A stretch of DNA of 64,000 nucleotides from Blastocatellia bacterium (GTDB taxonomy: Bacteria; Acidobacteriota; Blastocatellia; UBA7656; JADIYM01). Shown one piece after another: positions 1-43,024 of this stretch. Within the stretch, counting starts at the first letter, position 1. Each line of letters opens with the position of its first letter. The stretch spans positions 6,766-70,765 of the forward strand of contig JAJTWZ010000010.1 of assembly GCA_021463145.1 (NCBI GenBank), written 5' to 3'. The position numbers and the translations under genes are program-made. The notes beneath the pieces were generated by a model. That model was not told where the DNA came from and ran no database searches. It was given only the letters and a program-made list of their open reading frames with translations.

Positions 1-502
1 ACCAGATCACGTTCACGGGTCGCGACCGTGAGGGCCGCGAACGATCGGCAACACTGACACTGACGATCACGGCTGCCTGACGCGAGACGGCGTGGCACTG
101 GAGAATGGGGACTGACTTGCCGGAGTCAGTCACCATTGCTCCCACGATCGGAATCCGTGCCAGGTCGCGTTGCTCTTCCACTGGGATTCCACCTTCTCCC
201 GGGACTATGGACATTCGTTCGGCCGGGAACGGAAGTTCCGACGCCCCACGCCCCGCTTCACCCCTCGAGGGGCTTTGAACTTTTCCCTGCAGCATATCCA
301 CGGCTTCGCCGCGGGGGACGGGGTGCATTGGCGCCGACGCTCCCCGCCGCGTTCCCCGAGGCGGTTCAGGGCACTCCGCGAGCAAGGCTAACGCGTTCCC
401 CAGGCGGGCCGCGGAACACCAGTGGTGCGCCGAAGCATTCGTCCCGGCGGGAGATCAAAGCCACTTGCATCAAGCTGATCAGCGAGTCGGGGCGGTCGGC
501 GT

Positions 503-970
503 GTGGTAAGCTTCGCGCCGATCGTGTTGAACCGCGCACAACGGCCGCGTCACTGGCGGACCTGTCTCTATCGGTTGGTGGGGCTGCTCCTGCTGTTCAC
601 CTGCGTCGATATTCTGTCGCCCCAGACTTGCGCGGAAGATATGCTCGGTTTCTCCGCCGGCGGCGCCTCGATTTCCGCGACCGCTTCAGTGCCTTCCGCT
701 GCAGCTTCGAACTCGGCCGCGAACCCATCCTTCGAAGCCGCCTTGGATTCGCGCATGGCCGCCATCCAGGCGACGCCGTTGCATTCCGACGACAACAACG
801 CCTCGGAGCACGCCGACGAAGACTGCTTCTGTTGTTGTTCTCACCTCGTTGCAAGCGGCCGTATCACCCTTCAAGCCGTTCCGGCACAGGTGATGTCCGG
901 TAGCCCGACGCCATTCTCGATGTCTGTCGGCACGACTCAGTCGCTCTTCCGCCCTCCACGTCTCCTCTAG
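503..970 (+). CDS. Small putative exported protein with a Cys/His motif (HADEDCFCCCSH), possibly DUF2946-like and metal-resistance associated.
   Basis: The 155 aa ORF lies directly upstream of the czcCBA operon on the same strand. The N-terminus has a basic stretch followed by a hydrophobic segment (LVGLLLLFTCVDIL), which is signal-peptide-like. The C-terminal half carries a His/Glu/Cys cluster. The start is uncertain: the track uses a GTG at 503, and an internal ATG lies at about 641. Family assignment is from memory of small Cys-motif proteins found near copper and heavy-metal efflux genes and was not searched. Confidence 0.3.
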   Translation: MVSFAPIVLNRAQRPRHWRTCLYRLVGLLLLFTCVDILSPQTCAEDMLGFSAGGASISATASVPSAAASNSAANPSFEAALDSRMAAIQATPLHSDDNNASEHADEDCFCCCSHLVASGRITLQAVPAQVMSGSPTPFSMSVGTTQSLFRPPRLL

Positions 971-1146
971 TCCCTCGTATCGCTCCGTCACGATTTCCGC
1001 ACTGAAGGTGCCTGCGTCCCGTCCCCGGGGCGTCGGGGATCCCGGTGAGGTATGCCGCGCAGGGCCGTCGCCGGATAAATCCGTCGACCTTCGATGGCGA
1101 TTCTCGTGACGGACCCCGTCAGGCACGTCCCAGGAGAAGTATCGAA

Positions 1147-2733: not shown

Positions 2734-2745
2734 GGAACCACGGAA

Positions 2746-4179: not shown

Positions 4180-4181
4180 CC

Positions 4182-7100
4182 ATGATCGACGCAATCATCC
4201 GGTTCGCTGTCTCGCAGAGACTTCTCGTCTTTCTGATGACGGGCATTCTCGTCGTGGCGGGTATCAACTGCCTGCGCCGCCTCCCGATCGACGCCGTTCC
4301 AGACGTCACGAACGTCCAGGTCCAGGTCCTGACAGCCGCCCCCTCGCTCGCCCCGCTCGAGGTCGAAAGGCAGATCACCTTTCCGGTCGAGGTGGCGATG
4401 TCTGGCCTGCCGGGAATCGAAGAAATCCGTTCCGTGTCGAAATTCGGCCTCTCTGCGGTGACGATAGTATTCGAGGACTCGACCAACATCTATTTTGCCC
4501 GTCAGCTCGTTCTCGAACGTCTCTCGGAGGCTCGCGAGCAGATTCCCGAAGGCATCGGATCGCCCGAAATGGGCCCGATCTCGACGGGTCTCGGCGAGAT
4601 CTATCAGTATGAGCTCGTTGCGGCGCCAGAGAGCGGCTACGACGCGACCAGTCTTCGAACCGTGCAGGACTGGATCGTGCGCAGGCAGATGCTCGGCGTG
4701 CCAGGCGTCGTCGAGGTCAACTCGTTCGGAGGACGCGAAAAGCAGTACCAGGTACGTCTCGACCCTGCCCGCCTGCAGGCTTACGACCTTACGCTTCGGG
4801 ACGTGCTCGACTCCGTGGCGCGAAACAATGCCAATGTCGGCGGTGCCTACATTGAGCACGGCGAGGAGCAGTATCTGCTGCGCGGTCTCGGCCTCGTCGA
4901 ATCGCCCGACGACATCAGGAACATCGTCGTGAAGACCGGACCCGAGGGCGTCCCGGTTTACGTCAGCGACGTCGGAGAGGTAGTGACAGGGGCGACGGTT
5001 CGCCAGGGAGCGGTGACGGCGGACGGCAAGGGCGAGATCGTCGCAGGCATCGCGATGATGCTCAAGGACGAGAACTCGCGAACCGTGATCGAACGCGTCA
5101 AGGAGCGTGTCGAGCAGGTCAGGAAGTCGCTCCCGAAGGGCGTCGAGCTGATTCCCTTCTACGACAGGACCGAGCTCGTCGACCGCACGATCCGGACGGT
5201 GGCGATCAACCTCGTGGAAGGGGCGATCCTCGTCGTCGTCGTCCTCATCCTCCTGCTCGGTAACTGGCGGGGCGCGCTCCTCGTGGCGACGATAATTCCG
5301 CTCTCGATGCTCTTCGCCGCGATCTGCATGGTCGCCTTCAAGGTTTCGGGAAACCTGATGAGCCTCGGTGCGCTCGATTTCGGATTGATAGTCGACGGCG
5401 CGGTGGTCATGGTGGAGAACGCCGTGCGTAGGCGGGCCGAGGCGCAACACGACCGGAAAAGCGAGCCGCCCGAACGGACCATCCTCGAGGCCTGCCTGGA
5501 GGTCGGCAGGCCGGTCGTATTCGCCGTGGCGATCATCATGATCGTCTATCTCCCGATCCTCTCGCTGCGGGGGATCGAGGGCAAGATGTTCATCCCGATG
5601 GCACTGACGGTGATCTTCGCACTCGCGGGCTCGCTGTTGCTCTCGCTTACGTTCATCCCGGCGGCGATGACGCTGCTGCTCAAAGGACACGTCTCCGAAA
5701 CCGAAAGCCCTGTCATTCGACTGGCGAAACGGTGGTACAAGCCGTCGCTCGCTTATGTCATGCGCCACCGGAACCCGGTCGTCTCGAGCGCTTTCGCGCT
5801 CGTTCTCCTGAGCGGCGCCGTCCTGCCGCTGCTGGGGTCCGAGTTCATCCCGCGCCTGGACGAGGGGTCGCTGGCGATTCAGGTCCAGCAGCTTCCAAGC
5901 GTCTCGCTCAGCCAGTCGATTGCGACCACAACCGAGGTCGAGAAGGTGCTGATGACGTTCCCCGAGGTGACAAAGGTGGTTTCGAAGACGGGCCGCGCCG
6001 AAGTCGCCACCGACCCCATGAGCGTCGACTTCTCGGATCTCTACATCGCGCTCGAACCGCAGGAAAAATGGACGAGCGCGCGCACTCGCGAGGAACTGGT
6101 CGAGAAGATGTCCAACGCGCTCGAGGCCGGCGTGCCAAACGCGAGCGTCAGCTTCTCGCAGCCCATCGAGTTGCGGGTTTCCGAGCTCATCTCGGGGGTG
6201 CGTTCCGATGTCGGCATCAAGCTGTTCGGCGACGATCTCGACACGCTAAAGGAGAAGGGGGACCAGATCGCCCGAGTCGTCAGCCGTGTTGCTGGCGCCG
6301 AGGACGTGAAAGCGGAGGCCGTGTCCGGCCTGCCGCAATTGCAGATCAGGCCGGACCGGGCGGCCATCGCCCGCCTGGGCCTCAACGTCGAGGACGTCAA
6401 CGACGTGGTCGAGTCGATCGTGGCCGGCAAGGAGGCCGGTCAGGTTTTCGAAGGCGAACACCGGTTCGCGCTTGTCGTGCGTTTCGCCGAGTTGAACGAG
6501 AAGAACGTCGAGTCGATCAGGAACCTCACGTTGATGGCTCCCGGTGGCGCTCGTGTCCCACTGGGACAGGTGGCCGACGTTTCGCTCGTGGAAGGAGCGG
6601 CGCAGATCTCGCGTGAGGACGCGCGCCGGAGAATCGCAGTCGAGTGCAACGTTCGTGGGCGCGACATCGGCAGCTTCGTCGGGGAGGCGCAGGCAGCCAT
6701 CGAGCGCGAAGTTGTCCTGCCACCGGGCTACTACGTGACGTGGGGTGGGCAGTTCGAAAACCTGGAGCGCGCGACGGAGAGACTGCTCATAGTGGTGCCG
6801 CTCGCGCTCGTTCTCATCTTCGTGCTGTTGTTCTCCACGTTCGGTTCGGTGCGGCTGGCGCTGCTGATTTATACGGGAATCCCGTTCGCCGTCGTCGGCG
6901 GGGTATTCGGACTTGCGGTACGTGGGATGCCCTTCTCGATCTCGGCGGGGGTGGGGTTCATCGCCCTCTTCGGAGTCGCCGTGCTCAACGGAGTGGTGAT
7001 GGTCAGCTACGTCGATCGTCTTCGAAAGGAGGGCCGGTCGCTTGCGGAAGCTGTGATCGAGGGAGCCGAGACGCGTCTCAGGCCGGTGTTGATGACGGCG

Positions 7101-7271
7101 CTCGTCGCGAGCCTCGGGTTCGTACCGATGGCGCTGGCGACTTCTGCCGGGGCCGAGGTTCAGAGGCCGCTGGCAACGGTGGTCATCGGAGGCCTCGTTA
7201 CATCGACCGTCCTGACGCTGCTGGTACTGCCGACTCTCTACAAGTGGTTCGAGCGCGAACCGGGAGAGTGA
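4182..7271 (+). CDS. czcA: Heavy-metal efflux RND transporter, CzcA/CusA (HME) family
   Basis: The 1029 aa protein has an N-terminus (MIDAIIRFAVSQRLLVFLMTG...PIDAVPDVTNVQVQVLT...ARQLVLERLSEAREQIPEG) that aligns closely with CzcA-type HME-RND pumps. Its start lies 3 nt after the czcB stop. Confidence 0.93.
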   Translation: MIDAIIRFAVSQRLLVFLMTGILVVAGINCLRRLPIDAVPDVTNVQVQVLTAAPSLAPLEVERQITFPVEVAMSGLPGIEEIRSVSKFGLSAVTIVFEDSTNIYFARQLVLERLSEAREQIPEGIGSPEMGPISTGLGEIYQYELVAAPESGYDATSLRTVQDWIVRRQMLGVPGVVEVNSFGGREKQYQVRLDPARLQAYDLTLRDVLDSVARNNANVGGAYIEHGEEQYLLRGLGLVESPDDIRNIVVKTGPEGVPVYVSDVGEVVTGATVRQGAVTADGKGEIVAGIAMMLKDENSRTVIERVKERVEQVRKSLPKGVELIPFYDRTELVDRTIRTVAINLVEGAILVVVVLILLLGNWRGALLVATIIPLSMLFAAICMVAFKVSGNLMSLGALDFGLIVDGAVVMVENAVRRRAEAQHDRKSEPPERTILEACLEVGRPVVFAVAIIMIVYLPILSLRGIEGKMFIPMALTVIFALAGSLLLSLTFIPAAMTLLLKGHVSETESPVIRLAKRWYKPSLAYVMRHRNPVVSSAFALVLLSGAVLPLLGSEFIPRLDEGSLAIQVQQLPSVSLSQSIATTTEVEKVLMTFPEVTKVVSKTGRAEVATDPMSVDFSDLYIALEPQEKWTSARTREELVEKMSNALEAGVPNASVSFSQPIELRVSELISGVRSDVGIKLFGDDLDTLKEKGDQIARVVSRVAGAEDVKAEAVSGLPQLQIRPDRAAIARLGLNVEDVNDVVESIVAGKEAGQVFEGEHRFALVVRFAELNEKNVESIRNLTLMAPGGARVPLGQVADVSLVEGAAQISREDARRRIAVECNVRGRDIGSFVGEAQAAIEREVVLPPGYYVTWGGQFENLERATERLLIVVPLALVLIFVLLFSTFGSVRLALLIYTGIPFAVVGGVFGLAVRGMPFSISAGVGFIALFGVAVLNGVVMVSYVDRLRKEGRSLAEAVIEGAETRLRPVLMTALVASLGFVPMALATSAGAEVQRPLATVVIGGLVTSTVLTLLVLPTLYKWFEREPGE

Positions 7272-7361
7272 CGCGGGCCGGCAGTCAATCTTCCCCCGGC
7301 AGGGGCGCCGCCGGTGGCGCCCCACCGTATCACATCTATAATGACGGTGGAGGACGATGTG

Positions 7362-8489
7362 ATGACCGATTCGAGTGTTCGTGTCGGGACGGTGCTTGGA
7401 ATCGAAGTTCGGGCGAGCCGCGCCTGGGCCTTCGTCATTCTGATCGTCGCGTTCCTGATGGCCTCGAATTACAGGGAGATGTATCCGGCCTGGCCGACGG
7501 CGAATCTCGTCGCCGCCGGCGCCGCCACGAGCGCACTCTTCGTCGCCTCGGTCGTCTTGCACGAGCTCGCGCATTGCGTCGTTGCCCGGGCGTTCGGCAT
7601 TCAGCCGCGCTGGATCACCCTTACGTTCTTCGGTGGAATGTCGTCGCTCGGAAGACAGGCAAGGCGGCCGATAGAGGAATTCTGCTACGCGATCGCGGGA
7701 CCCGGGGCAAACGTGCTCCTCGCCGTGTTTTTTCTGGTCCTGGACTACCTCCTGCGCGAGACTTTTCCGGTTGTCGCGGCAGTCCTGCATAGTGTGGGGC
7801 TGATCAACGTCATCCTTGCGGTGTTCAATCTCGTGCCCGGCTTTCCGCTCGACGGGGGCCGTGCGATGCGCGCCGGCATCTGGTGGGTCACGGGCAGCTA
7901 CGAAAAAGGCACGGTGGCGGCGGCAATATCCGGACAGGCCATCGCGGCGGTGCTGTTGATGGCCGGTATTGCGGCGGTGTTCGCGGGCAGTTTCGAGGGG
8001 ATAATGCTCGGCTTCGCGGGCCTTTACCTGCTCGGCCGGGCCCGAGCGAGTCTCGGGGAGGTCGCGATGCGACGCGCGCTCACGGGCCTGACCGTGCAGA
8101 GCCTCTGGCTCGAGACGCTGCCACAGGTCGAGCGCACCACCTCACTTGTGGAGTTCCTCCGCCAGCTTCCGCCTACTCGCGAAAGCGCGCCGGATCCGCA
8201 TTTCATGGTCGTCGACGAGGGTGTCATCTACGGCCTGATTCCCGCGTCGCGCGTCACCCGGATCGAGCCCGACAAATGGACCAGGCAGACGGTTGGCGAT
8301 GTCATGACGCCAATCGATCGTGTCGAGAAGCTGACGTTCGAAACGGAGATCGTCCGGGCTCTCGAGGCCGTCGCCGCGTCCGACGTCGACGAACTGCCGG
8401 TCATCGACGAGAACGTCGTGCAGGGCTTCGTCGGACGTGACGCGCTGATGCGGTTCGTTGCGAGCCGGCTCGCATCCGAGGGCGGATGA
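7362..8489 (+). CDS. Site-2 protease family (M50) zinc metalloprotease with C-terminal CBS domains
   Basis: The protein has the HELAHCVVA HExxH motif inside a polytopic membrane region. The C-terminus has a CBS-pair-like sequence (DVMTPIDRVEKLTFETEIVRALEA...ELPVIDENVVQGFVGRDALMRF). The start was chosen at the ATG at 7362, which is preceded by GGAGGA; the track ORF begins at a GTG at 7314. Confidence 0.8.
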   Translation: MTDSSVRVGTVLGIEVRASRAWAFVILIVAFLMASNYREMYPAWPTANLVAAGAATSALFVASVVLHELAHCVVARAFGIQPRWITLTFFGGMSSLGRQARRPIEEFCYAIAGPGANVLLAVFFLVLDYLLRETFPVVAAVLHSVGLINVILAVFNLVPGFPLDGGRAMRAGIWWVTGSYEKGTVAAAISGQAIAAVLLMAGIAAVFAGSFEGIMLGFAGLYLLGRARASLGEVAMRRALTGLTVQSLWLETLPQVERTTSLVEFLRQLPPTRESAPDPHFMVVDEGVIYGLIPASRVTRIEPDKWTRQTVGDVMTPIDRVEKLTFETEIVRALEAVAASDVDELPVIDENVVQGFVGRDALMRFVASRLASEGG

Positions 8490-10000
8490 GCACGATGCGC
8501 GCCCTCGAGCCGGCGCCTTCGAAGGCACTCGCAACCCGCCCCGGCGTTTCGAGGCCACGGCAGTGGGTTCGGACGGCCTCGATTCTCTGGACACTGGCCG
8601 GGTTCGTATTCCCGATGATCCTCGAGGAAGCGCGCGACCGGATTGCCGGACGCGGATGGGTGCGCCGTCGCGCCGAGCCTGCCGATGCCCGGCTTGCGCG
8701 GCACGGAGCCCGGCTGCGCGATCGGCTGCTGCGGCTCGGCCCGACGTTCATCAAGACCGGGCAGATGCTTGCTACGCGCGCGGATCTGCTGCCGGTGCCA
8801 TTCCTGAAGGAACTCTCGATTCTCCACGATCGGGTGCCGCCGTATCCCGACGCGCAGGCATTCGCAATCATCGAAGAGGACCTCGGACGCTCACTTGGCT
8901 CGGTGTTCTCCGAGATCAGCGAAGGGCCGATCGCGGCGGCGAGTCTGGGCCAGGTCTATCGGGCCCGCCTCCGGGCGACTGGAGAGACCGTCGCCGTGAA
9001 GGTGCGCAGACCGGATCTTGCGCGTCGGGTTGCGCTGGACATGGCCGTGCTCGATCGCGTCGCGAGATGGACGGAGTCGCTCGAGCGCCGGTCGGATCGA
9101 TACGACTTCCTGAAGTTCCTTCGGGGAGAATGGGTCTCGTCCATTCGCGAATTCGACCGTGTGCTGCACGAGGAGATGGACTATCGGCGCGAGGCCGTGA
9201 GCGCCAGGCGCTTCAAGGCCAACTTCGCATCGTGGAAGGGAGTGCACGTTCCCCGAATTCACGAAGCCTTTTCGACAGAGCGCGTTCTGGTAATGGAGTT
9301 CGTCGAAGGGACCAAGGTAACGGATCTGGATGAGCTTCGGCGGCGCGGTCATTCGCCGCGTGCCATCAACGAGCGGCTCTACCGTACCTACTTCAAGCAG
9401 CTCTTCGAAGACGGCTTCTTCCACGCGGACCCGCATCCGGGAAACCTGCTCGTCATGGCGGACGGACGGCTCGCGTTCTTCGACTTCGGAATGTCGGGCG
9501 AGCTCGACGACGTGTTGCGCGGCCGTATGGTAACGGCGTTCTTTCATATGGTGGAGCGCGACATCGACGGACTGATCGAAGACCTCTTCGCACTCGGGTT
9601 CCTGCCGCCCGGCGCGGACATCCGGGGTCTTCACGAGCTCGTGGCCGAGGCCTTTTCGCGCCGTCTCGACGTGAAACTCTCCGAAGTCCGTTTCCGCGAG
9701 ATGGTCTACGACCTCGCGCCAATCGTATTCGAGTACCCGTTCACGACGCCGGCCCGTTTCACGTTTCTGATCCGCGCGCTGATGACGCTTGAAGGGATCA
9801 GCGTGCAGATGAATCCTGACTTCAATTTCTTCGAGGTGGCCGGGCCATACGCGCGCGACTTCCTGTTCAAGCGAGAGGCCAGGGCGCTCCGCGGTCAGGT
9901 GCTCGAGAGCCTGAAGACCGCCGGAACCGGGAAGTTCGATTGGGGACGCATCTGGCGTCTTGCCCGCACGGCGTACGACGTCTACACGAGCGGGCGTTAA
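8486..10000 (+). CDS. ABC1/UbiB-family atypical protein kinase
   Basis: Conserved ABC1 kinase motifs are present (LGPTFIKTGQMLATRADLLP, AAASLGQVYRARL, TGETVAVKVRRPD, FHADPHPGNLLV). The start overlaps the upstream stop (ATGA), indicating translational coupling to the site-2 protease. Confidence 0.85.
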   Translation: MSTMRALEPAPSKALATRPGVSRPRQWVRTASILWTLAGFVFPMILEEARDRIAGRGWVRRRAEPADARLARHGARLRDRLLRLGPTFIKTGQMLATRADLLPVPFLKELSILHDRVPPYPDAQAFAIIEEDLGRSLGSVFSEISEGPIAAASLGQVYRARLRATGETVAVKVRRPDLARRVALDMAVLDRVARWTESLERRSDRYDFLKFLRGEWVSSIREFDRVLHEEMDYRREAVSARRFKANFASWKGVHVPRIHEAFSTERVLVMEFVEGTKVTDLDELRRRGHSPRAINERLYRTYFKQLFEDGFFHADPHPGNLLVMADGRLAFFDFGMSGELDDVLRGRMVTAFFHMVERDIDGLIEDLFALGFLPPGADIRGLHELVAEAFSRRLDVKLSEVRFREMVYDLAPIVFEYPFTTPARFTFLIRALMTLEGISVQMNPDFNFFEVAGPYARDFLFKREARALRGQVLESLKTAGTGKFDWGRIWRLARTAYDVYTSGR

Positions 10001-10007
10001 AGAGCCG

Positions 10008-10517
10008 TTACCAGTCGCCGGCCTTGATTCGCTTCTTGATCTTCCGCTTGATCAGGTCGCGTTTGAGCGCGCTGAGGTGGCTGATGAAGACGATGCCGTT
10101 CAGGTGGTCGTTCTCGTGAAGGATGCACCGGGCCGAAAGATCCGTCGTGTCGATATCGAACCAGTTGCCCTTGACGTCCTGCGCTCGCGCGATCACGCGC
10201 TGCGGGCGATCGACCTGAAAGTAGATGCCCGGGAAGCTGAGGCACCCTTCGTCGCCTACCTGGCTGCCTTCGGTGGAGACGATCTCGGGATTGATCAGGG
10301 CCAGACGCTCCTGAACTCCGTCCTTCGTCGAGCAGTCCATCACGAAGAGCCGCTTGGAAACCCCGACCTGCGGCGCAGCGAGCCCGACGCCCGGCGCGGC
10401 GTACATCGTTTCGAACATGTCGTCGACGAGCCGCTTCAATTCGGTGTCGAACTCCACGACCGGATCGGCCGTCCTGGCGAGCACCGGATCGCCGTACTTT
10501 CGAATCTCGCGCATCAT
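10008..10517 (-). CDS. def: Peptide deformylase
   Basis: The three deformylase motifs are present: GVGLAAPQVG, EGCLSFPG and HENDHLNG. The protein is 169 aa. Confidence 0.93.
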   Translation of the reverse strand: MMREIRKYGDPVLARTADPVVEFDTELKRLVDDMFETMYAAPGVGLAAPQVGVSKRLFVMDCSTKDGVQERLALINPEIVSTEGSQVGDEGCLSFPGIYFQVDRPQRVIARAQDVKGNWFDIDTTDLSARCILHENDHLNGIVFISHLSALKRDLIKRKIKKRIKAGDW

Positions 10518-10852
10518 TCCGCGTTGTCACTCCCTCTCGAGCGTTCGTCGAGCGCTTGCCGCTCGCGACGCTTCTCTTCTATCAGCGAATTCATTGCCGC
10601 GACTCGTTCGCGATAGTGGCCGATCTCGCGCCACGCCACGAGCGCAAGCCCCAGAACCGTCAGCACGACCCCATACAACGTGTGGGTCGCGTATCCGATG
10701 GCAAAGCCAACGAACAGGATCACGACCAGCAGGGAATAATACACGAGCCCGTGAGTACGGGTCGCGTCGATCGAAAGCTGCAACTCACGCAGTTCTTCGT
10801 CGACCTCGCCCAGACGTTTCCTCAGGCCGTCGTTGTCCATGTCCGGCCTCAA
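10514..10852 (-). CDS. Hypothetical small membrane protein (two predicted transmembrane helices flanked by coiled-coil or charged segments)
   Basis: The 112 aa ORF overlaps aroC upstream and def downstream by 4 nt each, which suggests operon membership. The hydrophobic core is [39 protein letters not shown]. No family was recognised. Confidence 0.5.
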
Positions 10853-12024
10853 TATCGGGCCACCTGCGCCAGATAGCCTTCAAGATTCCGGCGCATCTCG
10901 GAAAGAGAATCGCCGCCGAATTTCTCGCGCATCGCAGAGGCACAGACCATCGCGATCATCGCCTCACCAATGACGCCTGCCGCCGGGACGGCGGTAATGT
11001 CCGAGCGCTCGAAGGCCGCGTCGGACGGTTCCTTCGTTTCGACGTCCACGGACCGGAGCCGCGATCGCAGGGTGGCGATCGGCTTCAGATAGCCGCGGAC
11101 GCGCAACTCTTCACCTGAAGTGACTCCGCCTTCGAGGCCACCGGCCCGGTTCGACGATCGGCCGAACGCGGCGCTCTCCGCTTCGTAGGTGATCTCGTCG
11201 TGAACGGCCGATCCCGGCATCCGCGCAGCGGCGACACCGGTGCCGATCTCGACGCCCTTCACGGCGTGAATAGACATGACGGCCTGGGCGAGCCGTCCGT
11301 CGAGTTTGGTTGTCCAACTGGTATGCGAGCCGAGGCCCGGCGGCAATCCTCGGACCACGACCTCGAAAATTCCGCCAAGGGTGTCGCCGGCGCGGCGAGC
11401 TTCGTCCACAGCTTCGACCATCAGAGCTTCGACGCCCGGATCGGAGCAGCGGAGCGGGCGTTCGTCCCCGATGGCAACGATGTCTTCCCAGGCCACGAGA
11501 CCATCCGGGATTGCCGGCGGAATTGAGCCGAGCGAAATCACGTGACTCGCAACCTGTATGTCGAATGCCGAAAGCAACTGGCGAGCGAGACCACCCGCGG
11601 CCACGCGGGCCGCGGTTTCACGGGCGCTGGCACGCTCGAGCACGTCCCGCAGATCGTGCCTGTCGTATTTCAGTCCGCCTGCCAGGTCCGCGTGACCGGG
11701 CCGGGGCCGTGTGACGCGGCGGGCCTTCCCGGGATCGAGCTCGCGCGGCTCGGACGACATCACGTCAAGCCAGTTCTGGTGGTCACGATTCTCGATAAGC
11801 AGCGCGACTGGGGAACCGAGTGTCTCTCCGTGACGAATACCCGAGAGCACTTCGGCCGAATCGCGTTCGATCTTCATGCGGCCGCCGCGGCCGTAGCCCT
11901 GCTGCCGCCGCCAGAGTTGGTGGTTGACCGCGCCAAGATCGATCGGAACGCCGGCTGGCAGTCCCTCGACGATCGTCACGAGCGCGCGTCCATGCGACTC
12001 ACCGGCAGTGGTAAAGGTCAGCAC
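10849..12024 (-). CDS. aroC: Chorismate synthase
   Basis: Full-length similarity to chorismate synthases, with an N-terminus typical of the family ([22 protein letters not shown]...[11 protein letters not shown]). Confidence 0.93.
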
Positions 12025-12124: not shown

Positions 12125-12985
12125 CTACGCGTGCCGGCTCCGCGTCAGATACCGCACCGCCAGATTCAACGCGAGGATTAACAGGACGAGCGTGAATGCC
12201 GCCGCCCATGCCTTCCGATGCCAGTCGTCGTACGGCGAGATCGAGTACGAGTAAATCTGCGCAGGAATCGACGCCATCGGCTTGTGGAGCGACGTCGTCC
12301 AGAGTGTGCTCCCAAGCGCCGTGAAGAGCAGAGGCGCCGTCTCTCCCATTGCGCGCGACACGGCGAGCAGGACTCCGGTCGCGATTCCGCTCGCCGCCGA
12401 CGCGAGCACGACGTCGATCGTGACACGCCACTTCGGTGCGCCGACGGCGAGTCCCGCGTCGCGCAGCGACTGTGGGACGAGCCGGAGCGTCTCTTCGCTC
12501 GTACGGACGACGACAGGCAGCATGATGATCGCGAGAGCAACGCCACCGGCGAGACCCGAGAAGCTGCGCATCGGCAGCACGATGAGCGTATAGGCAAAGA
12601 TGCCTACGACGATCGACGGAATCCCGGCGAGGACGTCGGTCAGGAAGCGGAGGATCTGTGCGAACAGGCCCGTCCCGAACTCCGACAGGTAGATCGCCGC
12701 GAGGATTCCGACCGGCACCGAGATCGCCATCGCGAGCGCGAGCATGATTAACGAGCCGGCGATCGCGTTAACGATCCCGCCTCCCGTTTCGCCCGCCGGC
12801 TTCGGCAACTCGGTGAAGAACGCCACGTCGAGGGAGCCGACTCCCTTATAGGCCATGTACGCGAGAATGATGACGAGGATGGCGATAACGAGGACCGCCG
12901 CGGCGCCCGTTGCCAGGCGCGCCGCCGCGTCGAGGGCAATGCGCCATCGATAGCCACGACCGTACTGCGGCGCCGTTGCGCTCAT
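12125..12985 (-). CDS. pstA: Phosphate ABC transporter permease PstA
   Basis: The protein is a polytopic permease carrying the ABC-permease EAA-like loop. It lies directly downstream of pstC. The start is placed at the ATG at 12985 (MSATAPQ), preceded by a strong GGAAGGGAGGG ribosome-binding site and 1 nt after the pstC stop. The track ORF extends to 13057. Confidence 0.9.
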   Translation of the reverse strand: MSATAPQYGRGYRWRIALDAAARLATGAAAVLVIAILVIILAYMAYKGVGSLDVAFFTELPKPAGETGGGIVNAIAGSLIMLALAMAISVPVGILAAIYLSEFGTGLFAQILRFLTDVLAGIPSIVVGIFAYTLIVLPMRSFSGLAGGVALAIIMLPVVVRTSEETLRLVPQSLRDAGLAVGAPKWRVTIDVVLASAASGIATGVLLAVSRAMGETAPLLFTALGSTLWTTSLHKPMASIPAQIYSYSISPYDDWHRKAWAAAFTLVLLILALNLAVRYLTRSRHA

Positions 12986-12986
12986 G

Positions 12987-13964
12987 TCAGCCCTCCCTTC
13001 CGATCGACCGGCCGCGCGTCGCGCGCCAGACGAGAAGCTGCGCGAGCGCGCGAACACCGAAACTCACGAGAAACAACAGGACGCCGACCTCGATGAGTGC
13101 ACTCATATAGAGTTTCGAGTTCGCTTCGGGAAACTCGTTCGCGATGACGCTCGCCATCGAGTACCCGGGCGCGAAGAGCGACGCGTTGATATCCGCGCGG
13201 TTGCCGATCACCATCGTCACGGCCATCGTCTCGCCCACGGCGCGCGCAAGGCCGAGGATGATAGCCCCCGTGATGCCGGGAAGCGCGTACTGGAACACGA
13301 CACGGACAGCTTCCCATTGGGTGGCGCCGAGCGCGAGGGCGCCGTCGCGCTGATGCTGCGGCACCGCCGCGAGAACGTCGCGCGACACTGCCGTGACGAT
13401 CGGCGTGATCATGATGGCGAGAATCAGTCCGGACGTGAGCATACCGACGCCGTACGACGGACCTTCGAACAGCGGCATCCAGCCGAGCGCCGAGATGAAC
13501 GGTGGTGCGACGGTGTCGCGCATGAACGGCACGAGCACGAAGATTCCCCACAGGCCGAACGCGACGCTCGGAATGGCTGCGAGCAATTCGACGACTGAGA
13601 TGACGGGTCGCCGAAGCGCCATCGGGGCCTGGTAGGTCACGAAGAGCGCAACCGCGATGCTGATTGGAACCGCGACGACGAGCGCTACACCCGAACTGAC
13701 GATCGTTCCGTAGACGAACGGCAAAGCGCCGAACCGTTCGACCGGCGGGTTCCAGTCCGTCCCGTACACGAACGCGAGGCCGTACCGCGAGATCGTCAGC
13801 CACGAGCCTCGCAGCATCTCGAACAGCATCAACGCGATGAGGACGAGCACGGAGAATGCGAAGACGAACGTCACCGCGTGGAAGACGAAGTCGCCGGCAT
13901 GTGCCGGACGAAGCCGCCCGATGAGCGAAGCGCTCGGCTGCGGGCTCGGTACGGTAGTGTCCAT
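12987..13964 (-). CDS. pstC: Phosphate ABC transporter permease PstC
   Basis: The protein aligns with E. coli PstC from an internal ATG at 13964 (MDTTVPS...GLAFVYGTDWNPP...), which is preceded by GGAG. The track ORF starts at a GTG at 14033, which remains an alternative start. Confidence 0.88.
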   Translation of the reverse strand: MDTTVPSPQPSASLIGRLRPAHAGDFVFHAVTFVFAFSVLVLIALMLFEMLRGSWLTISRYGLAFVYGTDWNPPVERFGALPFVYGTIVSSGVALVVAVPISIAVALFVTYQAPMALRRPVISVVELLAAIPSVAFGLWGIFVLVPFMRDTVAPPFISALGWMPLFEGPSYGVGMLTSGLILAIMITPIVTAVSRDVLAAVPQHQRDGALALGATQWEAVRVVFQYALPGITGAIILGLARAVGETMAVTMVIGNRADINASLFAPGYSMASVIANEFPEANSKLYMSALIEVGVLLFLVSFGVRALAQLLVWRATRGRSIGREG

Positions 13965-14050
13965 CGTGGAGGGCTCCGTGGGCTGTGCTGGAAGCGCCGG
14001 GACGGAGCGAGTATCGACCACCCGCTCCGTCACGGTATGGCGGGAAGGGA

Positions 14051-15145
14051 CTACGCGAGAAGCGCCTTACCGGCGTGGTTCACGAGCTTGAGCTTCGCTT
14101 CGGCCTTCGCCCGAATCGCCGCCGGAAGCGGAGCGAAGACGAGCTCTCTGGCCATCGCCTCGCCGTCCTTCAACGCCCACGCGATGAAATCGACGAGGGC
14201 CTTGCCCTTTACTGCATCGTCCTGATCCTTGTAGACGAGGAGGTACGTGAAGCCAGAGATCGGGTACGACGCCTCACCGGCCGCATTCGTGATCGAAACG
14301 CGAAGATCGTCGGGGATCGACGTCGCCACGCCATCGGCCGCGGCCGTGACCGAGTCGAGCGTCGGCTCGACGAACTTGCCGGCCGAGTTCTTCATCTTTG
14401 CCGTGGCGAGCCCGTTGTTCTTCGCATAGATGAGCTCGACATAGCTGACCGCACCGGGCGTGTTCTTCACGTAACCGGCAACGCCGTCGTTGCCCTTGTT
14501 GCCCGGTCCGACCGGCCACTTCACCGTCGTGCCGGTTCCGACCTTCTCCTTCCACTCGGGACTGACCTTCGAAAGGAAGTCGACGAAGATCGCCGTCGTG
14601 CCGCTACCGTCTGCGCGGTTCGTCACGGCGATGTCGGAGCTCGGAAGCGCGCCGCCGGGGTTGAGCGCGGCGAGCTTCGGATCGTTCCACTTCGTGATCT
14701 TGCCGAGGAAGATCTCGGCGGTTGTCTCGCCATCGAGGTTCAGCGGTTCCTCGAGGCCGGCGAGGTTGTACGTCACGACGACCGCGCCGAGCACCGTAGG
14801 AATGTGGAGGATCTCCTTCGACGCCGTCTCGAGCTGCTCGTCGGTCATCGGCGCGTCGGTCGCGCCGAAGTCGACCGTTCGCTCGGATATCTGTTTGATG
14901 CCGCCTCCCGATCCGATCGACTGGTAGTCGATTCTTACGCCGGGGTTCGCGCGGTTGTACTCCGACGTCCATTTCGAATAGAGGGGGCCCGGAAACGAGG
15001 CGCCAGCGCCTTGCAGTGTAAGTCCCGCGCCAGTGCTGGACATTGCTCCCGGAGTTACCGGACCGTCGCTCGTTTGCCCGCACGCCGTGCCGAGCAGAAC
15101 GAGCGCGACGAATCCGGCCAGTGCTGCCCGTGTGTCAAGTCGCAT
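14051..15145 (-). CDS. pstS: Phosphate-binding periplasmic protein PstS
   Basis: The N-terminus is signal-peptide/lipoprotein-like (VALVLLGTACGQ). PstS/PBP-superfamily motifs follow (GAGASFPGPLYSKW, GSGGGIKQ, NRADGSGTT). An AGGAGA ribosome-binding site precedes the start. Confidence 0.9.
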   Translation of the reverse strand: MRLDTRAALAGFVALVLLGTACGQTSDGPVTPGAMSSTGAGLTLQGAGASFPGPLYSKWTSEYNRANPGVRIDYQSIGSGGGIKQISERTVDFGATDAPMTDEQLETASKEILHIPTVLGAVVVTYNLAGLEEPLNLDGETTAEIFLGKITKWNDPKLAALNPGGALPSSDIAVTNRADGSGTTAIFVDFLSKVSPEWKEKVGTGTTVKWPVGPGNKGNDGVAGYVKNTPGAVSYVELIYAKNNGLATAKMKNSAGKFVEPTLDSVTAAADGVATSIPDDLRVSITNAAGEASYPISGFTYLLVYKDQDDAVKGKALVDFIAWALKDGEAMARELVFAPLPAAIRAKAEAKLKLVNHAGKALLA

Positions 15146-15206
15146 CGCCGCGATCTCCTGTTCATAGTCGTCAGATTCCGAACGCCCGGAATGCTAGCGG
15201 GCGCGT

Positions 15207-15234
15207 GTGAACGGAGAGTGAAGCGGTTGTGAAA
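15207..15234 (-). promoter_or_regulatory. Candidate Pho box: three GTTCAC-type direct repeats at exact 11-bp spacing upstream of pstS
   Basis: The plus strand reads GTGAAC (15207), GTGAAG (15218) and GTGAAA (15229). On the pstS coding strand this is TTTCAC-N5-CTTCAC-N5-GTTCAC, oriented toward pstS and ending about 60 bp upstream of its start. The 11-bp periodicity matches PhoB/PhoP-type (OmpR-family) direct-repeat sites. Confidence 0.5.
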
Positions 15235-15276
15235 TGTACGTGTCTCGACCGGGCGGGATGAAGGCGGAGCGAGCGC

Positions 15277-16395
15277 TCATGGAAGCTCGTGCCGGGCCGG
15301 AAGCTCTACTATGAAGGTCGAGCCTTTCGACGGTTCGCTTTCGACCGAAACGGCGCCGCCGTGAGCCAAAGCGAGATGCTTCACGATCGCGAGTCCGAGT
15401 CCGGAGCCGCCGGCCACTCGAGACCGCGATCGGTCCGTACGGAAGAGCCGTTCGAACACGCGCGGCAGGTCCGTGGCCGAGATTCCGGCGCCTTCGTCGC
15501 GCACGCGGATGATCGACGCCCCCATCTCGCCCCGCCCGGCGCGGACCTCGACGCGCCCGCCCGGTTGACTGAACTTGATCGCGTTGTCGATCAGGTTGTC
15601 GAGAATCTGTTCGAGGCGATGGCGATCGGCGACGACGCGGAAGCCTCCAGTGACTCCATTTTCCAGAGAAACGCCGGCGGATCTCGCGCGCAACGAGGCG
15701 AGCGTGAACATCTCGTCGACGATCACCGACAGGTCGTGGGCCTCGACGTTGAGTGCGACTTCACCCGACTCGATCATCGACAAGTCGGTGAGGTCGTGCA
15801 CGAGCGACTGCATGCGAAGCGCGTTCTTCTGGACGATTTCGAGAAATCGAACGTTGTTGGCAGGGTCTTCGATCGCGCCGCCGAGCAGCGTTTCGATGCT
15901 GGCGAGCACTGCAGTCAGCGGCGTCCGCAACTCGTGCGAGAGGTTGGCGAGGAAGTCGCGCCGGATTCTCTCCAGGCGCTCGATCTCGGTAATGTCGAAG
16001 AAGACGCCGGCGGCGCCCGCGATCCCCGGTTCGGGACTTGTGGGGCCAATTGGTGCGACGTTGAGCGAGAATGTCCGCATCCCGCGACGGCGCACCTCGA
16101 CGCGACGCTGCTCGGGGGTCCCGGAAGTCAATACGGACCGGAAGGCGGCGTTGATGTCCGGGTCGCGCGTTACGTCGATGAGTCTTGGGCGCGGTAACGG
16201 GTTGCGCTCCGGCAGATCGAATATGCTGGCGGCGGCGTGGTTGTACAGGATCACCTCCGTCCTGCTGTCGATCGCGACGATGCACTCCTGCATGCCGTCG
16301 AGGACCGCTTCCATCAGTTGACCAATGTCATCCATCACTTGCGATACCGGCCTCTCCTCGGAACCTGGCGGTGCCTTCTTTCTGGTGCGAGGCAT
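15277..16395 (-). CDS. phoR: Phosphate regulon sensor histidine kinase PhoR (PAS, HisKA and HATPase domains)
   Basis: The H-box is LSHELRTPLTAV, and N, G1 and G2 ATPase motifs are present (DNAIKF, DEGAGI, GGSGLGLAIV). An N-terminal PAS-like region is present. The gene is adjacent to phoB and phoU. Confidence 0.85.
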   Translation of the reverse strand: MPRTRKKAPPGSEERPVSQVMDDIGQLMEAVLDGMQECIVAIDSRTEVILYNHAAASIFDLPERNPLPRPRLIDVTRDPDINAAFRSVLTSGTPEQRRVEVRRRGMRTFSLNVAPIGPTSPEPGIAGAAGVFFDITEIERLERIRRDFLANLSHELRTPLTAVLASIETLLGGAIEDPANNVRFLEIVQKNALRMQSLVHDLTDLSMIESGEVALNVEAHDLSVIVDEMFTLASLRARSAGVSLENGVTGGFRVVADRHRLEQILDNLIDNAIKFSQPGGRVEVRAGRGEMGASIIRVRDEGAGISATDLPRVFERLFRTDRSRSRVAGGSGLGLAIVKHLALAHGGAVSVESEPSKGSTFIVELPARHELP

Positions 16396-16439
16396 TCAGT
16401 CCTCAGTCGATGTCCGCAGTGAAGGCCGTTCCGTTGCGC

Positions 16440-17171
16440 TCACGGCTCCGATCGCGAGTTCTTCGTCTGGCCGACGAAACGATATCCGACACCTATGACG
16501 GTTTCTATGTACGAATCGAGGTTCAACTTCTTGCGCACACGCCGGATATGCACGTCCAGCGTGCGCGATTCGCCGTAGTAGTCGAGGCCCCAGACCCTGT
16601 CGAGCAGGTAGTCGCGCGTGAGCACGCGGCCCTTCGCCTCCGAGAGCAGGCGAAGCAGCGCGAACTCCTTGCGGGTGAGACCGACTGTCTCGCCGTCGAC
16701 GGAGACGATGAAATTGTCGTAGTCGATGAAGAGGCGATCGTCGGAGTAGGTGGGCGCCGGCCCCGAATCGCTCTCGGTGCGCCGCAGCACGGCGTGGATG
16801 CGTGCAACCAGTTCTCGCATGCTGAAAGGCTTGACTATGTAGTCGTCAGCTCCCAGTTGAAGGCCCAGCACCCGGTCGTTCTCGTCCGTTCGCGCCGTCA
16901 AAAGGAGAATCGGAATGCGCGATGTCTCTTCGTCGCGGCGCAGCCGGCGGCATAGCTCGAAGCCACTCATGAGCGGCAGGTTGACATCGAGAATCACGGC
17001 GGCCGGGGGCGATCGCAGGATCTCGTTCAGCCCCGCCTCGCCCGTACTAGCCGTCCGAACGTCGTACGTGCCCTCGCGTTCGAGGTTGTAGCGGATGGAA
17101 CTTGCGATGTCTTCATCGTCCTCGACGATCAGGACACGGCGCCGTACTGATCCCGTCGATCCCATTGTCAT
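16440..17171 (-). CDS. phoB: OmpR-family response regulator PhoB
   Basis: The receiver domain (VLIVEDDEDI...ILDVNLPLMSGFELC...KPF) is followed by an OmpR/PhoB winged-helix domain (LTRKEFALLRLL...VLTRDYLLDRVWG...RTLDVHIRRVRKKL). The gene overlaps the phoU stop by 4 nt. Confidence 0.9.
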   Translation of the reverse strand: MTMGSTGSVRRRVLIVEDDEDIASSIRYNLEREGTYDVRTASTGEAGLNEILRSPPAAVILDVNLPLMSGFELCRRLRRDEETSRIPILLLTARTDENDRVLGLQLGADDYIVKPFSMRELVARIHAVLRRTESDSGPAPTYSDDRLFIDYDNFIVSVDGETVGLTRKEFALLRLLSEAKGRVLTRDYLLDRVWGLDYYGESRTLDVHIRRVRKKLNLDSYIETVIGVGYRFVGQTKNSRSEP

Positions 17172-17827
17172 TCCTCGATGACGTGCTTGATGACGTTACC
17201 GCGCTTTATGTACACGACGAGCTCGCAGAGGTTCGTGACATAGTCGGCAATTCGCTCGAGGTGCTTGCTCACGAGCACGAGCTCCACGGCGCGCGGCACG
17301 CACGCTGGATCTTCCATCATGCACGCCGTGAGCTCTCGGGTGACCTGCCGATGCATCGCGTCCACTTCGTCGTCGCGGCGGATGACCCCCCAGGCGCGAT
17401 CGGGATCCACGCTGGTGAAGGCGTCGAGCCCGGCGACGAGCATCTCCTGGACGATCGCGCTCATGCGCGGAATGTCGACATAGACCTTCATCTGCGGTTC
17501 GTTGTTGAGCTTGATTGCGTGCTTCGCAATGTTGACCGCGTGATCGGCAATTCGCTCGATGTTGGGAGCGGCTTTTGCGACTCCTACAACGAAACGGAGG
17601 TCAGACGCCGCGGGCTGTTGCAGGACAAGCGTGTCGATGCACGCTTCGTCCAGCTCGAGCTCGAGCCGGTCGATTCGATCGTCGTCACTGATGACCTGGT
17701 TGGCGATGGACGAGTCTCGCTCGACCAGCGCGCGAGTCGCGCGCGCGATGGCGGATTCCGCTGCTCCCCCCATGATGAGAATCTTGTCGCGGAGCAGGTG
17801 AAGATCGGGATCTATCGGTCTGTGCAT
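17168..17827 (-). CDS. phoU: Phosphate signalling complex protein PhoU
   Basis: The protein has the two-repeat PhoU architecture (DDRIDRLELELDEAC ... DDEVDAMHRQV; paired ERIADHAVNIAK and ERIADYVTNLCE motifs). Confidence 0.9.
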   Translation of the reverse strand: MHRPIDPDLHLLRDKILIMGGAAESAIARATRALVERDSSIANQVISDDDRIDRLELELDEACIDTLVLQQPAASDLRFVVGVAKAAPNIERIADHAVNIAKHAIKLNNEPQMKVYVDIPRMSAIVQEMLVAGLDAFTSVDPDRAWGVIRRDDEVDAMHRQVTRELTACMMEDPACVPRAVELVLVSKHLERIADYVTNLCELVVYIKRGNVIKHVIEE

Positions 17828-17851
17828 CGCCGTTCCTTTCGCCGTTCGTCT

Positions 17852-18736
17852 TCAGCCAAACCGGCCTGTGACGTAATCCTCGGTCATCCGTTCGTCCGGA
17901 TTAGTGAAAATCTGCTCCGTCGGATTGAATTCGACGAGCTTACCGAGCCAGAAGAATGCCGTGAGATCGGAGACCCGCGCTGCCTGCTGCATATTGTGCG
18001 TGACGATGACGATAGTGTATTCGCCCTTCAGCTCGGCTATCAGTTCCTCGATCTTCTGCGTCGCGATGGGGTCGAGCGCCGAACAGGGCTCGTCCATGAG
18101 AATGACTTCGGGCTCGACGGCGAGCGCCCGGGCGATGCACAGCCGCTGCTGCTGCCCGCCCGAGAGGCCGAGCGCCGAGTCCTCGAGACGGTCCTTCACC
18201 TCGTCCCAGAGCGCGGCGCCGCGCAGTGCGCGCTCGACGCGGGCGTCGAGATCCGGCTTCGACGCGTGCATCCGGTTGATCCGAATGCCGTACGCGGTGT
18301 TGTCGTAGATCGACTTCGGGAACGGGTTCGACTTCTGGAATACCATTCCGACCCGGCGACGCAGGCCCACGACGTCGGTGCGGGGCGCGTATATGTCGCA
18401 ACCGTCAATTGCGATTCTCCCTGTCACCCGAGAGCCTGGTATTGTGTCGTTCATCCTGTTGAAGCAACGCAGAAGCGTAGACTTGCCGCATCCGGACGGT
18501 CCGATGAAGGCCGTGACCTTGCCGGCCGGGATGTTCATCGAGACGTCGAAGAGTGCCTGCGTCGGGCCATAAAAGAAACTTGCATCATCGACGGCGAACT
18601 TCTGCGCCGTGCCGGCTTCTGATCGCCCGTGCCATTCGGACCCGTCCGCTCCAGGCGCAGGCCGGCCTGCCGCGCCTGGAAAGTCGTTTTCATTGCTGAC
18701 GTTCACGGGTTGAAATTCCACTTGGTATCCGTCCAT
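17852..18736 (-). CDS. pstB: Phosphate ABC transporter ATP-binding protein PstB
   Basis: The Walker A motif is GPSGCGKST, the signature is [14 protein letters not shown] and the Walker B is [11 protein letters not shown]. PstB-typical flanks are present ([12 protein letters not shown]; [12 protein letters not shown]). The track ORF has an N-terminal extension of about 40 aa with no internal ATG, so the true start may be a downstream GTG or TTG. Confidence 0.9.
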
Positions 18737-18771
18737 TCGATTCGATCCGCATTCCTCCGCCGGTCCACGCT

Positions 18772-20277
18772 TCAGAACGAGTAAACAACGTCCAGCTGGA
18801 ATCTATTCAGCCAGCGATTGACGGGCGACACGGTCTGCAGCCGTCGTTGGAGGAAGTACCTGCCCGACAGCTCCACGTTCCTTCGAAGCATATAAGCCGC
18901 CATGGCCCAGTGAAGCACGGAGTTCGTCTGCAACGTGTCGCTTTCCATGAAGACCGACGGGTAAACGTCGCGCTCCGCTTTCCAGAATGCGTAATTGAAG
19001 TACCAGTCGCCCTGCTGCTGGCGCTGTCCGAGTGTGACGAATGCGTAGCCACCGTCTCGCTGGTTGTCGAAGGCGCCGGTGTTGTGCAGCCATTCGACCG
19101 AGAACATCAGCGGAAAGCGCGGATGTAAGCCGGTGTAAGTCAGCTCCCCGAGAGCGTTGACAACCCGGAAGTCGGAACGAAACTCGAGTGCGTTCGTGAA
19201 CGGGTTCCGGACGATTGCGTTCGTGGAACCGTACTCGAGCGAGCCGTTGACGTCCGTCGAGCCTCCGTTTAGCGCAGGCGGGATGACGTTGGCCTGCTCG
19301 AAGTCGTGAAAAGTACCCGCAATCGTCGATGACCAGTTCTTCGACCAACTCCATTCGGTGAGAATCTGTCCACCCAGGATGGTCGCGTCAGCGCCGGCCG
19401 ACCGCTCGCGAAACGGAAGTTGCCACGCGATCAACTGGACGGCGCGCAGCGGGCGGTCTTTGCTGACCCTGAAGCGCAGCCGTTCCGAAGCTCCTTCGAC
19501 GGTCAGGTCGTTGTCGAACGTGAACGCTGTTCGCTTCCAGGTCGGCTCGAACTTTCCGGCGTGCAATTCGAGGTTCACGGGATCGGAGTCGGTTGTGAAT
19601 CTAAGGAACGCGCGCTCGAGGGATACAGGCTTGCGCTCGTAGAAATCGGAGAGGGTCTGATTGGGCGAGATCGGATCCGTGAACGTTCCCGTCGATAGCC
19701 GGAGTCCCCAATCGAAATGGTTGTCGATCCTGCCGCTGATGCCGGCCCGGACGCGAACCCGGAAGCGGTTGCGCGGGCCGGTATCTGCGGGCAGATCGAA
19801 TCCCTGGTTGTAGAAACCCTCGTATCGGAATCGAATATCGCCGGAGAACCTGAAGTTCCCGAAGCGCTTCTCGAGCGTCTCGAGCCGGGTTGCGACCGCG
19901 TCGGCATCTTGATTCGCTGCCGCTGCATCGAGATCCGGCCTCGATGGCGCCGGGGGGGAAACGGATGATTCGGGCGACACGGATGGCAGCTGACCCGGGA
20001 TTGGCGCGACGGATGTCCTGCTGGCGACTTCGGCCTCGAGCCTGGCGATCCGTTCCTGCTGCGCGAGGACGAGACGCTCGAGTCGTTCGAGCGTTTCGGA
20101 CTGGCGGCGGAGCATTTCTTCGACCGTGGCAGGCTTTTCAGCGGGTGCGCCGGCGCGGGGGGCGTGCCTGTCGGCTGTGTCGTCGCCTGCGAGAGCCGCG
20201 GATGTGCTCGCCAGCACTGTAGCTGCAATCGTCAGGAGGCGGAACGGGCGGAACAATCCTGGGGTCATTGGTTTCAT
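18772..20277 (-). CDS. Putative phosphate-selective porin (OprO/OprP-like outer membrane beta-barrel)
   Basis: A signal peptide ([17 protein letters not shown]) is followed by an N-terminal coiled coil and a long region of alternating amphipathic strands that ends in a C-terminal F (VYSF). The gene heads the pstB-phoU-phoBR unit. The family call is from architecture and context and was not searched. An alternative ATG lies 9 nt downstream. Confidence 0.6.
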
Positions 20278-20421
20278 CTCCGTCGAAGTCTCGGTCCTGA
20301 ATGTGTCTGAACGGCGGAATGATCTTCACGCGGATGGAAGTCTGCAACGGTCAGTTCGACCAGTTCTCGGCGAGGTTCGTACATTCGAGTCGAATTGTTG
20401 GCGGCACGCTCTTACGGGGCC

Positions 20422-20460
20422 GTGAACGCAATGTGAAATCCATGAGAACGATGCAGGAAA
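20422..20460 (-). promoter_or_regulatory. Candidate Pho box: four direct repeats at exact 11-bp spacing upstream of the porin-pstB-phoU-phoBR unit
   Basis: The plus strand reads GTGAAC (20422), GTGAAA (20433), GAGAAC (20444) and AGGAAA (20455). On the coding strand these are GTTCAC-like repeats oriented toward the porin start, about 145-185 bp upstream. The repeat unit is the same as upstream of pstS. Confidence 0.45.
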
Positions 20461-20543
20461 TTGGCAGGGGAGTGGCGCGACGTTCTCCTCGTGACCGGCA
20501 GGGAGTCCGGGCCGCTTCTGGCGTGATTCTTCGCCCGCGCCGT

Positions 20544-20825
20544 CTACTCGTCGGGATGTGTCCGCTTCCGGGCCACGCTGGACGGCCGGATCGTAGGATC
20601 GCGATCCTCCGGATGGAAGACGAAGCTGCTGGCTACGTATATTGCCGCGAATGCAGCCGCGCCGCAGCCGACTGCCCAGAGAAGGTGTCCGGCAGATGCG
20701 AGGTCGTAGGCGACGAGACCGACGATCAGGCCGGCCGCGGCAGCCAGGCATAGGTTCAGATGTCGCACGGTCCTTTTCCTTTTGGGGGCACTTCGGGAAT
20801 ACACGGACCGCCGCCGGAATGTCAA
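20544..20825 (-). CDS. Hypothetical small membrane protein
   Basis: The 93 aa ORF lies in a roughly 1 kb intergenic region. It has two hydrophobic segments (LCLAAAAGLIVGLVAY; AVGCGAAAFAAIYVASSFVF). No family was recognised, and it could be spurious in this high-GC DNA. Confidence 0.25.
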   Translation of the reverse strand: MTFRRRSVYSRSAPKRKRTVRHLNLCLAAAAGLIVGLVAYDLASAGHLLWAVGCGAAAFAAIYVASSFVFHPEDRDPTIRPSSVARKRTHPDE

Positions 20826-42587: not shown

Positions 42588-42588
42588 G

Positions 42589-43014: not shown

Positions 43015-43024
43015 CTCGCCTCCT

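Follow-up and report, generated by a model that had tools for sequence, protein, structure and literature searches.

What are the evenly spaced repeats that lie between phoR and pstS in this Blastocatellia contig, which protein would read them, and do they place the phosphate transporter genes under phosphate control? We addressed these questions in the whole stretch of DNA available (64,000 nucleotides, hereafter the window), following up an earlier note that had read three of the repeats as a candidate binding site of a PhoB-type regulator.

The genes concerned are all transcribed from the minus strand. The pstS gene (14051..15145) encodes the substrate-binding protein of the phosphate ABC transporter (NCBIfam TIGR00975, 3.7e-120; TIGR02138, 4.6e-86; TIGR00974, 2.2e-84) and is followed by pstC (12987..14033), pstA (12125..13057) and, after pstA in transcription order, aroC (10849..12024). 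Upstream of pstS and separated from it by a 131-bp spacer is a second operon, whose first gene encodes a Porin_5-family outer-membrane porin (18772..20277; Pfam PF16930, 1.4e-22), followed by pstB (17852..18736; TIGR00972, 2.6e-119), phoU (17168..17827; TIGR02135, 1.7e-64), a gene encoding a phoB-type OmpR-family response regulator with Pfam Response_reg and Trans_reg_C domains (16440..17171), and a gene encoding a phoR-type histidine kinase with PAS-HisKA-HATPase architecture (15277..16395). A cognate PhoR/PhoB-type pair, as expected for a Pho box, is encoded next to pstB-phoU. The order porin-pstB-phoU-phoB-phoR and then pstS-pstC-pstA (12125..20277, minus strand) is a permutation of pstSCAB-phoU that places the transporter ATPase gene inside the regulatory operon, and it is kept in three related loci (L001, L165 and L166). 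The kinase lacks an N-terminal hydrophobic segment and is presumably soluble, and it would have to sense phosphate via PstB/PhoU. Two distant homologues of the porin (P0077 and P0079) additionally show PF07396.

Thirty further genes of the window were assigned by Pfam to efflux, cell-wall, partner-switching and central metabolism functions, and no other phosphate-starvation gene was found among them. The nearest PstS relatives come from Blastocatellia and Pyrinomonadaceae metagenome-assembled genomes (MAGs). Four contigs with an identical PstS, including JADLGM010000603.1 (MAG GCA_020849315.1), are 100% identical to the window and thus uninformative on conservation, and a metagenome scan with PstS found no relative closer than 62%.

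Phased repeats upstream of pstS and of the porin operon

Direct reading of the minus strand, which is the pstS coding strand, from 15234 to 15207 gives TTTCAC (15234..15229), aaccg, CTTCAC (15223..15218), tctcc and GTTCAC (15212..15207), exactly the TTTCAC-N5-CTTCAC-N5-GTTCAC series that the earlier note had described. These units lie in the phoR-pstS spacer (15276..15146) with a period of exactly 11 bp, in agreement with the claim that they are one helical turn apart, and 61 nt separate the end of GTTCAC from the pstS ATG (15145), where about 60 bp had been given. The count of three units holds for the perfect ones; the array has four, as a degenerate AGACAC (15245..15240) lies 11 bp upstream of TTTCAC and extends it to 15245..15207. 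This distal unit 1 aligns with GGTCAC of L001 and L166. At least two direct-repeat units at 11 bp, each with about 7 conserved and 4 variable nt, are expected of a Pho box, and here three perfect TTCAC and one degenerate unit are present. Downstream of the promoter-proximal unit 4 (GTTCAC), after 10 nt, the sequence reads TAGCAT (15191..15196, minus strand), a candidate -10 hexamer of the TAN3T type, and a ribosome-binding site, AGGAGA (15154..15159, minus strand), is found 8 nt before the pstS ATG.

When up to two mismatches are allowed, TTCAC-N6-TTCAC-N6-TTCAC is matched three times in the 64-kb window, where 0.06 matches are expected, and no shuffled sequence out of 100 had three or more. 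With a relaxed four-unit score, the pstS-side array, including AGACAC, reaches 19/20, and only two sites in the window score 19/20 or more (15244..15207 and 20448..20411), while 0.01 are expected per Markov-shuffled window. According to these shuffle counts, and to the conservation in relatives described below, a chance origin of the repeats is excluded. Neither spacer gave a hit with a generic repeat finder; this was not counted against the repeats because their cores are only 5-6 nt long and the spacers between them are unconserved.

The second of these sites, at 20459..20411, is the only one besides the pstS-side array that reaches 17/20 or more in the 64 kb, and it lies on the same strand. 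According to the motif scan, this second array (20411..20459) contains four to five units, TTCCT, TTCTC, TTCAC, TTCAC and GTAAG, with an 11-bp period, and precedes the porin ATG by about 130-180 nt. The arrays precede both phosphate-related operons of the window, which are its only two, and none is found elsewhere in the 64 kb; at window scale, the motif is shared by both phosphate operons but not by unrelated genes, as expected of a Pho box. The earlier note had proposed a motif search upstream of other phosphate genes, and at this scale the search found the second array at the only other phosphate operon.

Upstream of the porin gene of L166, in register with the five units of the window, the sequence shows TTCAC, TTCGC, TTAAC, TTCAC and GAAAC, followed by 10 nt and TAAGTT. 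This alignment supports a five-unit porin array with a putative -10 near 20400..20394. In the window, the second array has only a poor -10, whose identity is ambiguous between CAACAA/AACAAT (20400..20394) and TAAGAG (20414..20409). The corresponding region of L165 was unhelpful as a footprint, being about 95% identical to the window, and L166 was the informative locus instead. That identity covers the porin upstream region and first codons (20278..20560, minus strand; 1850..2290 in L165), in loci that are about 80% identical overall, and points to either a strong constraint on a long leader or a recent exchange.

Conservation in relatives and across Acidobacteriota

The three loci used for footprinting, L001, L165 and L166, have the same gene order as the window and 70-86% DNA identity to it. 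Their pstS promoters read TGTCAC-aaccg-CGTCAC-acgcc-GTTCAC-atgcgctcga-TAGCTT in L165, GGTCAC-gaaca-TGTCAC-agcga-TGTCAC-atggc-GTTTAC-acacgcccga-TAGCGT in L166, and GGTCAC-gaaca-TGTCAC-agcga-TGTCAC-atgac-GTTCAC-acgatcccga-TAGCGT in L001. In the alignment of these promoters with the window (A3), TCAC of unit 2 (15229..15234) and unit 3 (15218..15223), GTT.AC of unit 4 (15207..15212), TAGC.T and the ribosome-binding site are invariant. Unit 4 takes the form GTT(C/T)AC, within a kept CGTT(C/T)ACA, the ribosome-binding site lies within a conserved GAA.AGGAGA, and the spacing between units is kept. The upstream half of the phoR-pstS spacer is unalignable, and the spacer varies in length from 131 to about 240 nt. 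In BLASTN of L165 against the window, homology stops after phoR and restarts exactly at 15244, at the first unit. Orthologous promoters thus keep the array while the sequence around it has diverged, according to alignments A1 and A3, the BLASTN break point and a survey of 145 loci.

This survey used a motif of four units [TG]T[CA]A[CG] with an 11-bp period, scored out of 20 across the fetched loci; some of the surveyed loci had served to design the motif, but not the metagenome loci L081-L160, which are independent of it. Of 145 pstS upstream regions, 40 scored 18/20 or more, compared with 24 of 7255 pieces of 250 bp taken as background, and 18 of the 40 belong to the independent metagenome loci. 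A four-unit array together with a -10 is kept before pstS in dozens of Acidobacteriota loci. Alignment of 27 promoters in register gives tGTTaAC-N4-a.TTCAg-N4-aGTTCAG-N4-ATGTAACACc, followed by 8 nt and TAga.T; TAGCAT of the window has the same offset, with TA and the final T in common. In 20 or more Pyrinomonadaceae-type pstS promoters the counterpart of unit 4 is ATGTAACAC. The unit sequence thus varies by lineage (TCAC, TTAAC, TTCAG, GTAAC), while the 11-bp phasing is constant. Elsewhere in the surveyed loci there are 19 high-scoring sites, and at least nine precede phosphate-related genes, which encode Porin_5 porins (L011, L089 and L018), PhoB-like regulators (L049 and L137), PsiE (L048), a second PstS (L149) and a domain-only OmpR-type protein beside pstS (L002).

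A porin paralogue in L167, with 64% identity, served as negative control and shows no repeat array. The gene of this Porin_5 protein and its neighbours (355..11553), which include Pfam matches to LMWPc, PHO4 and ArsA_ATPase as well as a molybdopterin oxidoreductase and its Fe-S and NrfD partners, form a cluster that looks arsenic-related.

In at least ten Pyrinomonadaceae-type loci, pstS is immediately preceded by a gene whose product, of about 110-120 amino acids, is an OmpR/PhoB-type winged-helix DNA-binding domain on its own. It is found in L002 (about 2200..2600) and also in L003-L007, L009, L081, L083 and L097. Trans_reg_C is the sole Pfam match of these receiver-less proteins, whose stop-to-stop frames range between 119 and 154 amino acids, and in L002 a four-unit array lies upstream of this gene too. 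It is unusual for a pst operon to encode a PhoB-like protein that lacks the receiver, and the window has none.

The literature searched contains no description of a Pho box or PhoB site for Acidobacteria or Acidobacteriota. We are inclined to regard the window and its relatives as the first Pho-box architecture for this phylum, with four (pstS) or five (porin) phased 11-bp units that end 10 bp before a TAGNNT -10 hexamer. The unit sequence would have drifted, to TCAC in this clade and to TTAAC, TTCAG or GTAAC in Pyrinomonadaceae, while phasing and promoter distance stayed fixed, and in Pyrinomonadaceae the architecture would coincide with a gene for a receiver-less PhoB-type protein beside pstS. 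If so, the consensus would make it possible to predict phosphate regulons throughout a soil phylum that is abundant and mostly uncultured. Soil communities are shaped by the scarcity of phosphate, and few groups of soil bacteria are as abundant as the Acidobacteriota. The conserved motif is a practical handle for predicting which genes uncultured Acidobacteriota switch on without phosphate.

The presumed regulator and published Pho boxes

The presumed binder of the arrays is the response regulator encoded at 16440..17171. Its best NCBIfam match is TIGR02154 PhoB (4.1e-66), with a score of 222.5 bits against a curated cut-off of 296.2 bits, and because the score is below this cut-off 'PhoB' is used here as a context-based name. 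The best solved relative of the whole protein is RegX3 (2oqr, 4.3e-54), and its DNA-binding domain is also closer to RegX3 (8.8e-22) than to E. coli PhoB (2e-13); other OmpR-family chains near this domain are 8hml, 8hig and 8hih. The PhoB-type regulator named in the earlier note is encoded where it had been placed, at 16440..17171, but with a DNA-binding domain nearer to that of an actinobacterial protein. The recognition helix, RTLDVHIRRVRK, is identical in 10 of 12 residues to that of E. coli PhoB, RTVDVHIRRLRK (checked against 1QQI and 1GXP), and both proteins share RT.DVHIRR.RK. In the wing, Ile takes the place of E. coli Arg219 in the alignment. Arg219 of E. coli PhoB reads the A/T-rich minor groove in the 1GXP complex, and a regulator without its counterpart would fit the G+C-rich spacers found here.

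PHO boxes are described as pairs of 11-nt direct-repeat units with the cores CTGTCAT in E. coli and GTTCACC in S. coelicolor (PMC4415409), which bears out what the earlier note had said of the 11-bp units and of GTTCACC as the Streptomyces consensus. Compared with GTTCACC, unit 4 (GTTCACA) matches at six of seven positions, and units 2 and 3 match in TTCAC only. The Mycobacterium smegmatis RegX3 site, G(T/G)TCAcc-n4 as given in PMC7884335, fits the window and its relatives better in that form than the Streptomyces one does. The arrays resemble the actinobacterial PHO boxes of Streptomyces PhoP and RegX3 in their 11-nt units, G(T/G)TCAC core, variable unit number and location upstream of pstS and other phosphate genes (PMC4415409; PMC7884335), with GTTCAC, CTTCAC and TTTCAC in the window and TGTCAC, GGTCAC and GTTCAC in the relatives. 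They differ in the host, a diderm Acidobacteriota MAG, in the seventh position, which is A or T and not C, and in the kinase without a membrane segment. A regulator gene inside a pstB-phoU-phoB-phoR operon is not typical of actinobacteria either.

The E. coli pstS Pho box (CTGTCAT, an A/T-rich spacer and CTGTCAC/T) has in common with the window array the 11-bp period, the TCA core, the replaced -35 and the location 10 bp before a TAN3T hexamer (PMC1906773). In contrast to E. coli, the base before TCA is T in the window, while it is G in E. coli and in the relatives of the window; the spacers are G+C-rich and not A/T-rich, Ile replaces Arg219 and the gene order is permuted. The enterobacterial form, a TGTCA core with an A/T-rich 4-nt spacer, is accordingly absent from the window, which has TTCAC cores and the G+C-rich spacers aaccg and tctcc, although its relatives do have TGTCAC. 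The E. coli pstS promoter has four units, i.e. two boxes, and the number of units is likewise four here. Upstream of pst operons, cyanobacterial SphR Pho boxes also consist of at least three tandem units, CTTAACCT, with a period of 11 bp (PMC1906773). The GTTAAC-like units of the Pyrinomonadaceae-type relatives are similar to these; those of the window differ from them, being of the TCAC and not the TTAA type.

The repeats are very probably the operator of a PhoB-dependent pstSCA promoter, formed by two tandem Pho boxes with four 11-bp units and the core (T/G)TCAC. A Pho box before pstS is of the textbook type and in the expected place, and it is not a new kind of system. The alternative that retains most weight, while still unlikely, is that the array serves as operator for another OmpR-family regulator, for example a GlnR-, MtrA- or PolR-like one that is encoded elsewhere and controls pst genes incidentally, instead of the adjacent PhoB-type one. 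Binding of 11-bp-spaced direct repeats is general among OmpR-family proteins, and the Microlunatus regulator PolR, which is not a Pho protein, has a footprinted GTTCACnnnnnGTTCaC site on the pstS, pit and ppk promoters (PMC6754071); the score of the local regulator under the curated PhoB cut-off and the closeness of 8hml, 8hig and 8hih to its DNA-binding domain would also fit. Against this, each array of the window stands before a phosphate operon, in one case the operon that includes the regulator gene, and the motif of the relatives is likewise associated with pstS, porin, phoB-like and psiE genes. Furthermore, the recognition helix is almost identical to that of E. coli PhoB and the unit has the TCA core of E. 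coli, and the annotated genes of the window include no other response regulator.

Promoter, leader and proposed control of pstSCA

In E. coli, the Pho box is located 10 bp upstream of a TAN3T/A -10 (as quoted in PMC1906773). In the window, a sigma-70 consensus scan of the phoR-pstS spacer found no -35/-10 promoter. Replacement of the -35 by the box, with a TAN3T hexamer about 10 bp further on, is expected of a Pho-box promoter; here GTTCAC occupies the place of the -35, where no -35 consensus is seen, 10 nt separate it from TAGCAT, and the offset is kept in relatives.

Conservation is highest in the proximal unit and the TAGCNT hexamer, and both lie at promoter distances, as they would if the array were a promoter element, upstream or -35-like, read by RNA polymerase with a housekeeping or alternative sigma factor and no activator. 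This explanation is improbable. Recognition by sigma factors does not involve four to five phased repeats spread over 40-50 bp, and the spacer holds no -35/-10 consensus. In addition, the sequence of the repeats drifts between lineages while their phasing stays, which fits a co-evolving DNA-binding protein. Least credible of all is a chance repeat, excluded by shuffles and conservation, or an RNA-level element, such as a structure or a processing site between the two cistrons of a phoR-pstS read-through transcript: with no terminator predicted between phoR and pstS, transcription may extend through the region, but direct repeats do not pair together, and an RNA element was rejected on the spacer fold (z = -0.09 compared with shuffled sequences) and on an Rfam scan of the whole window, which matched only a tRNA.

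The earlier note had placed pstSCA under direct PhoB control from a promoter of its own. The array, its distance to the TAN3T hexamer and their conservation support such a promoter, while read-through from the upstream operon probably contributes as well: because no terminator was predicted on the gene strand after phoR, pstSCA mRNA probably comes both from the pstS promoter and from transcripts that began upstream.

For the PhoB-dependent operator, the features read from the sequence suggest the following mechanism. Under phosphate limitation, the soluble PhoR, freed from PstB/PhoU inhibition, would phosphorylate the regulator encoded at 16440..17171. The phosphorylated regulator would bind head-to-tail, with one winged-helix domain per unit, so that two dimers would cover the four units. 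Activation would be of the class II type, in which the proximal protomer, at the place of the -35 and 10 bp from TAGCAT, may recruit sigma-70 RNA polymerase. The predicted transcription start, near 15184, would leave a leader of about 40 nt that carries the strong AGGAGA ribosome-binding site. The second array would bring porin-pstB-phoU-phoB-phoR under the same control, and thus lead to positive autoregulation of phoBR and to induction of the porin, pstB and phoU. The phoBR operon of E. coli is also autoregulated (PMC1906773).

Some minor features remain. A short inverted repeat, ATTCCG-ggcgtt-CGGAAT (15176..15193, minus strand), follows the candidate -10 directly, where the leader is predicted to begin, and is not conserved in L001, L165 or L166. 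The only Rfam match of the window is a tRNA gene at 61930..62001 (plus strand), and, away from the phosphate genes, three consecutive large genes at 40857..48626 (minus strand) encode SpoIIE-type PP2C phosphatases of 576, 847 and 877 amino acids, which adjoin an anti-sigma-type kinase (42589..43014) and a STAS protein (43025..43381) and form with them an expanded partner-switching module.
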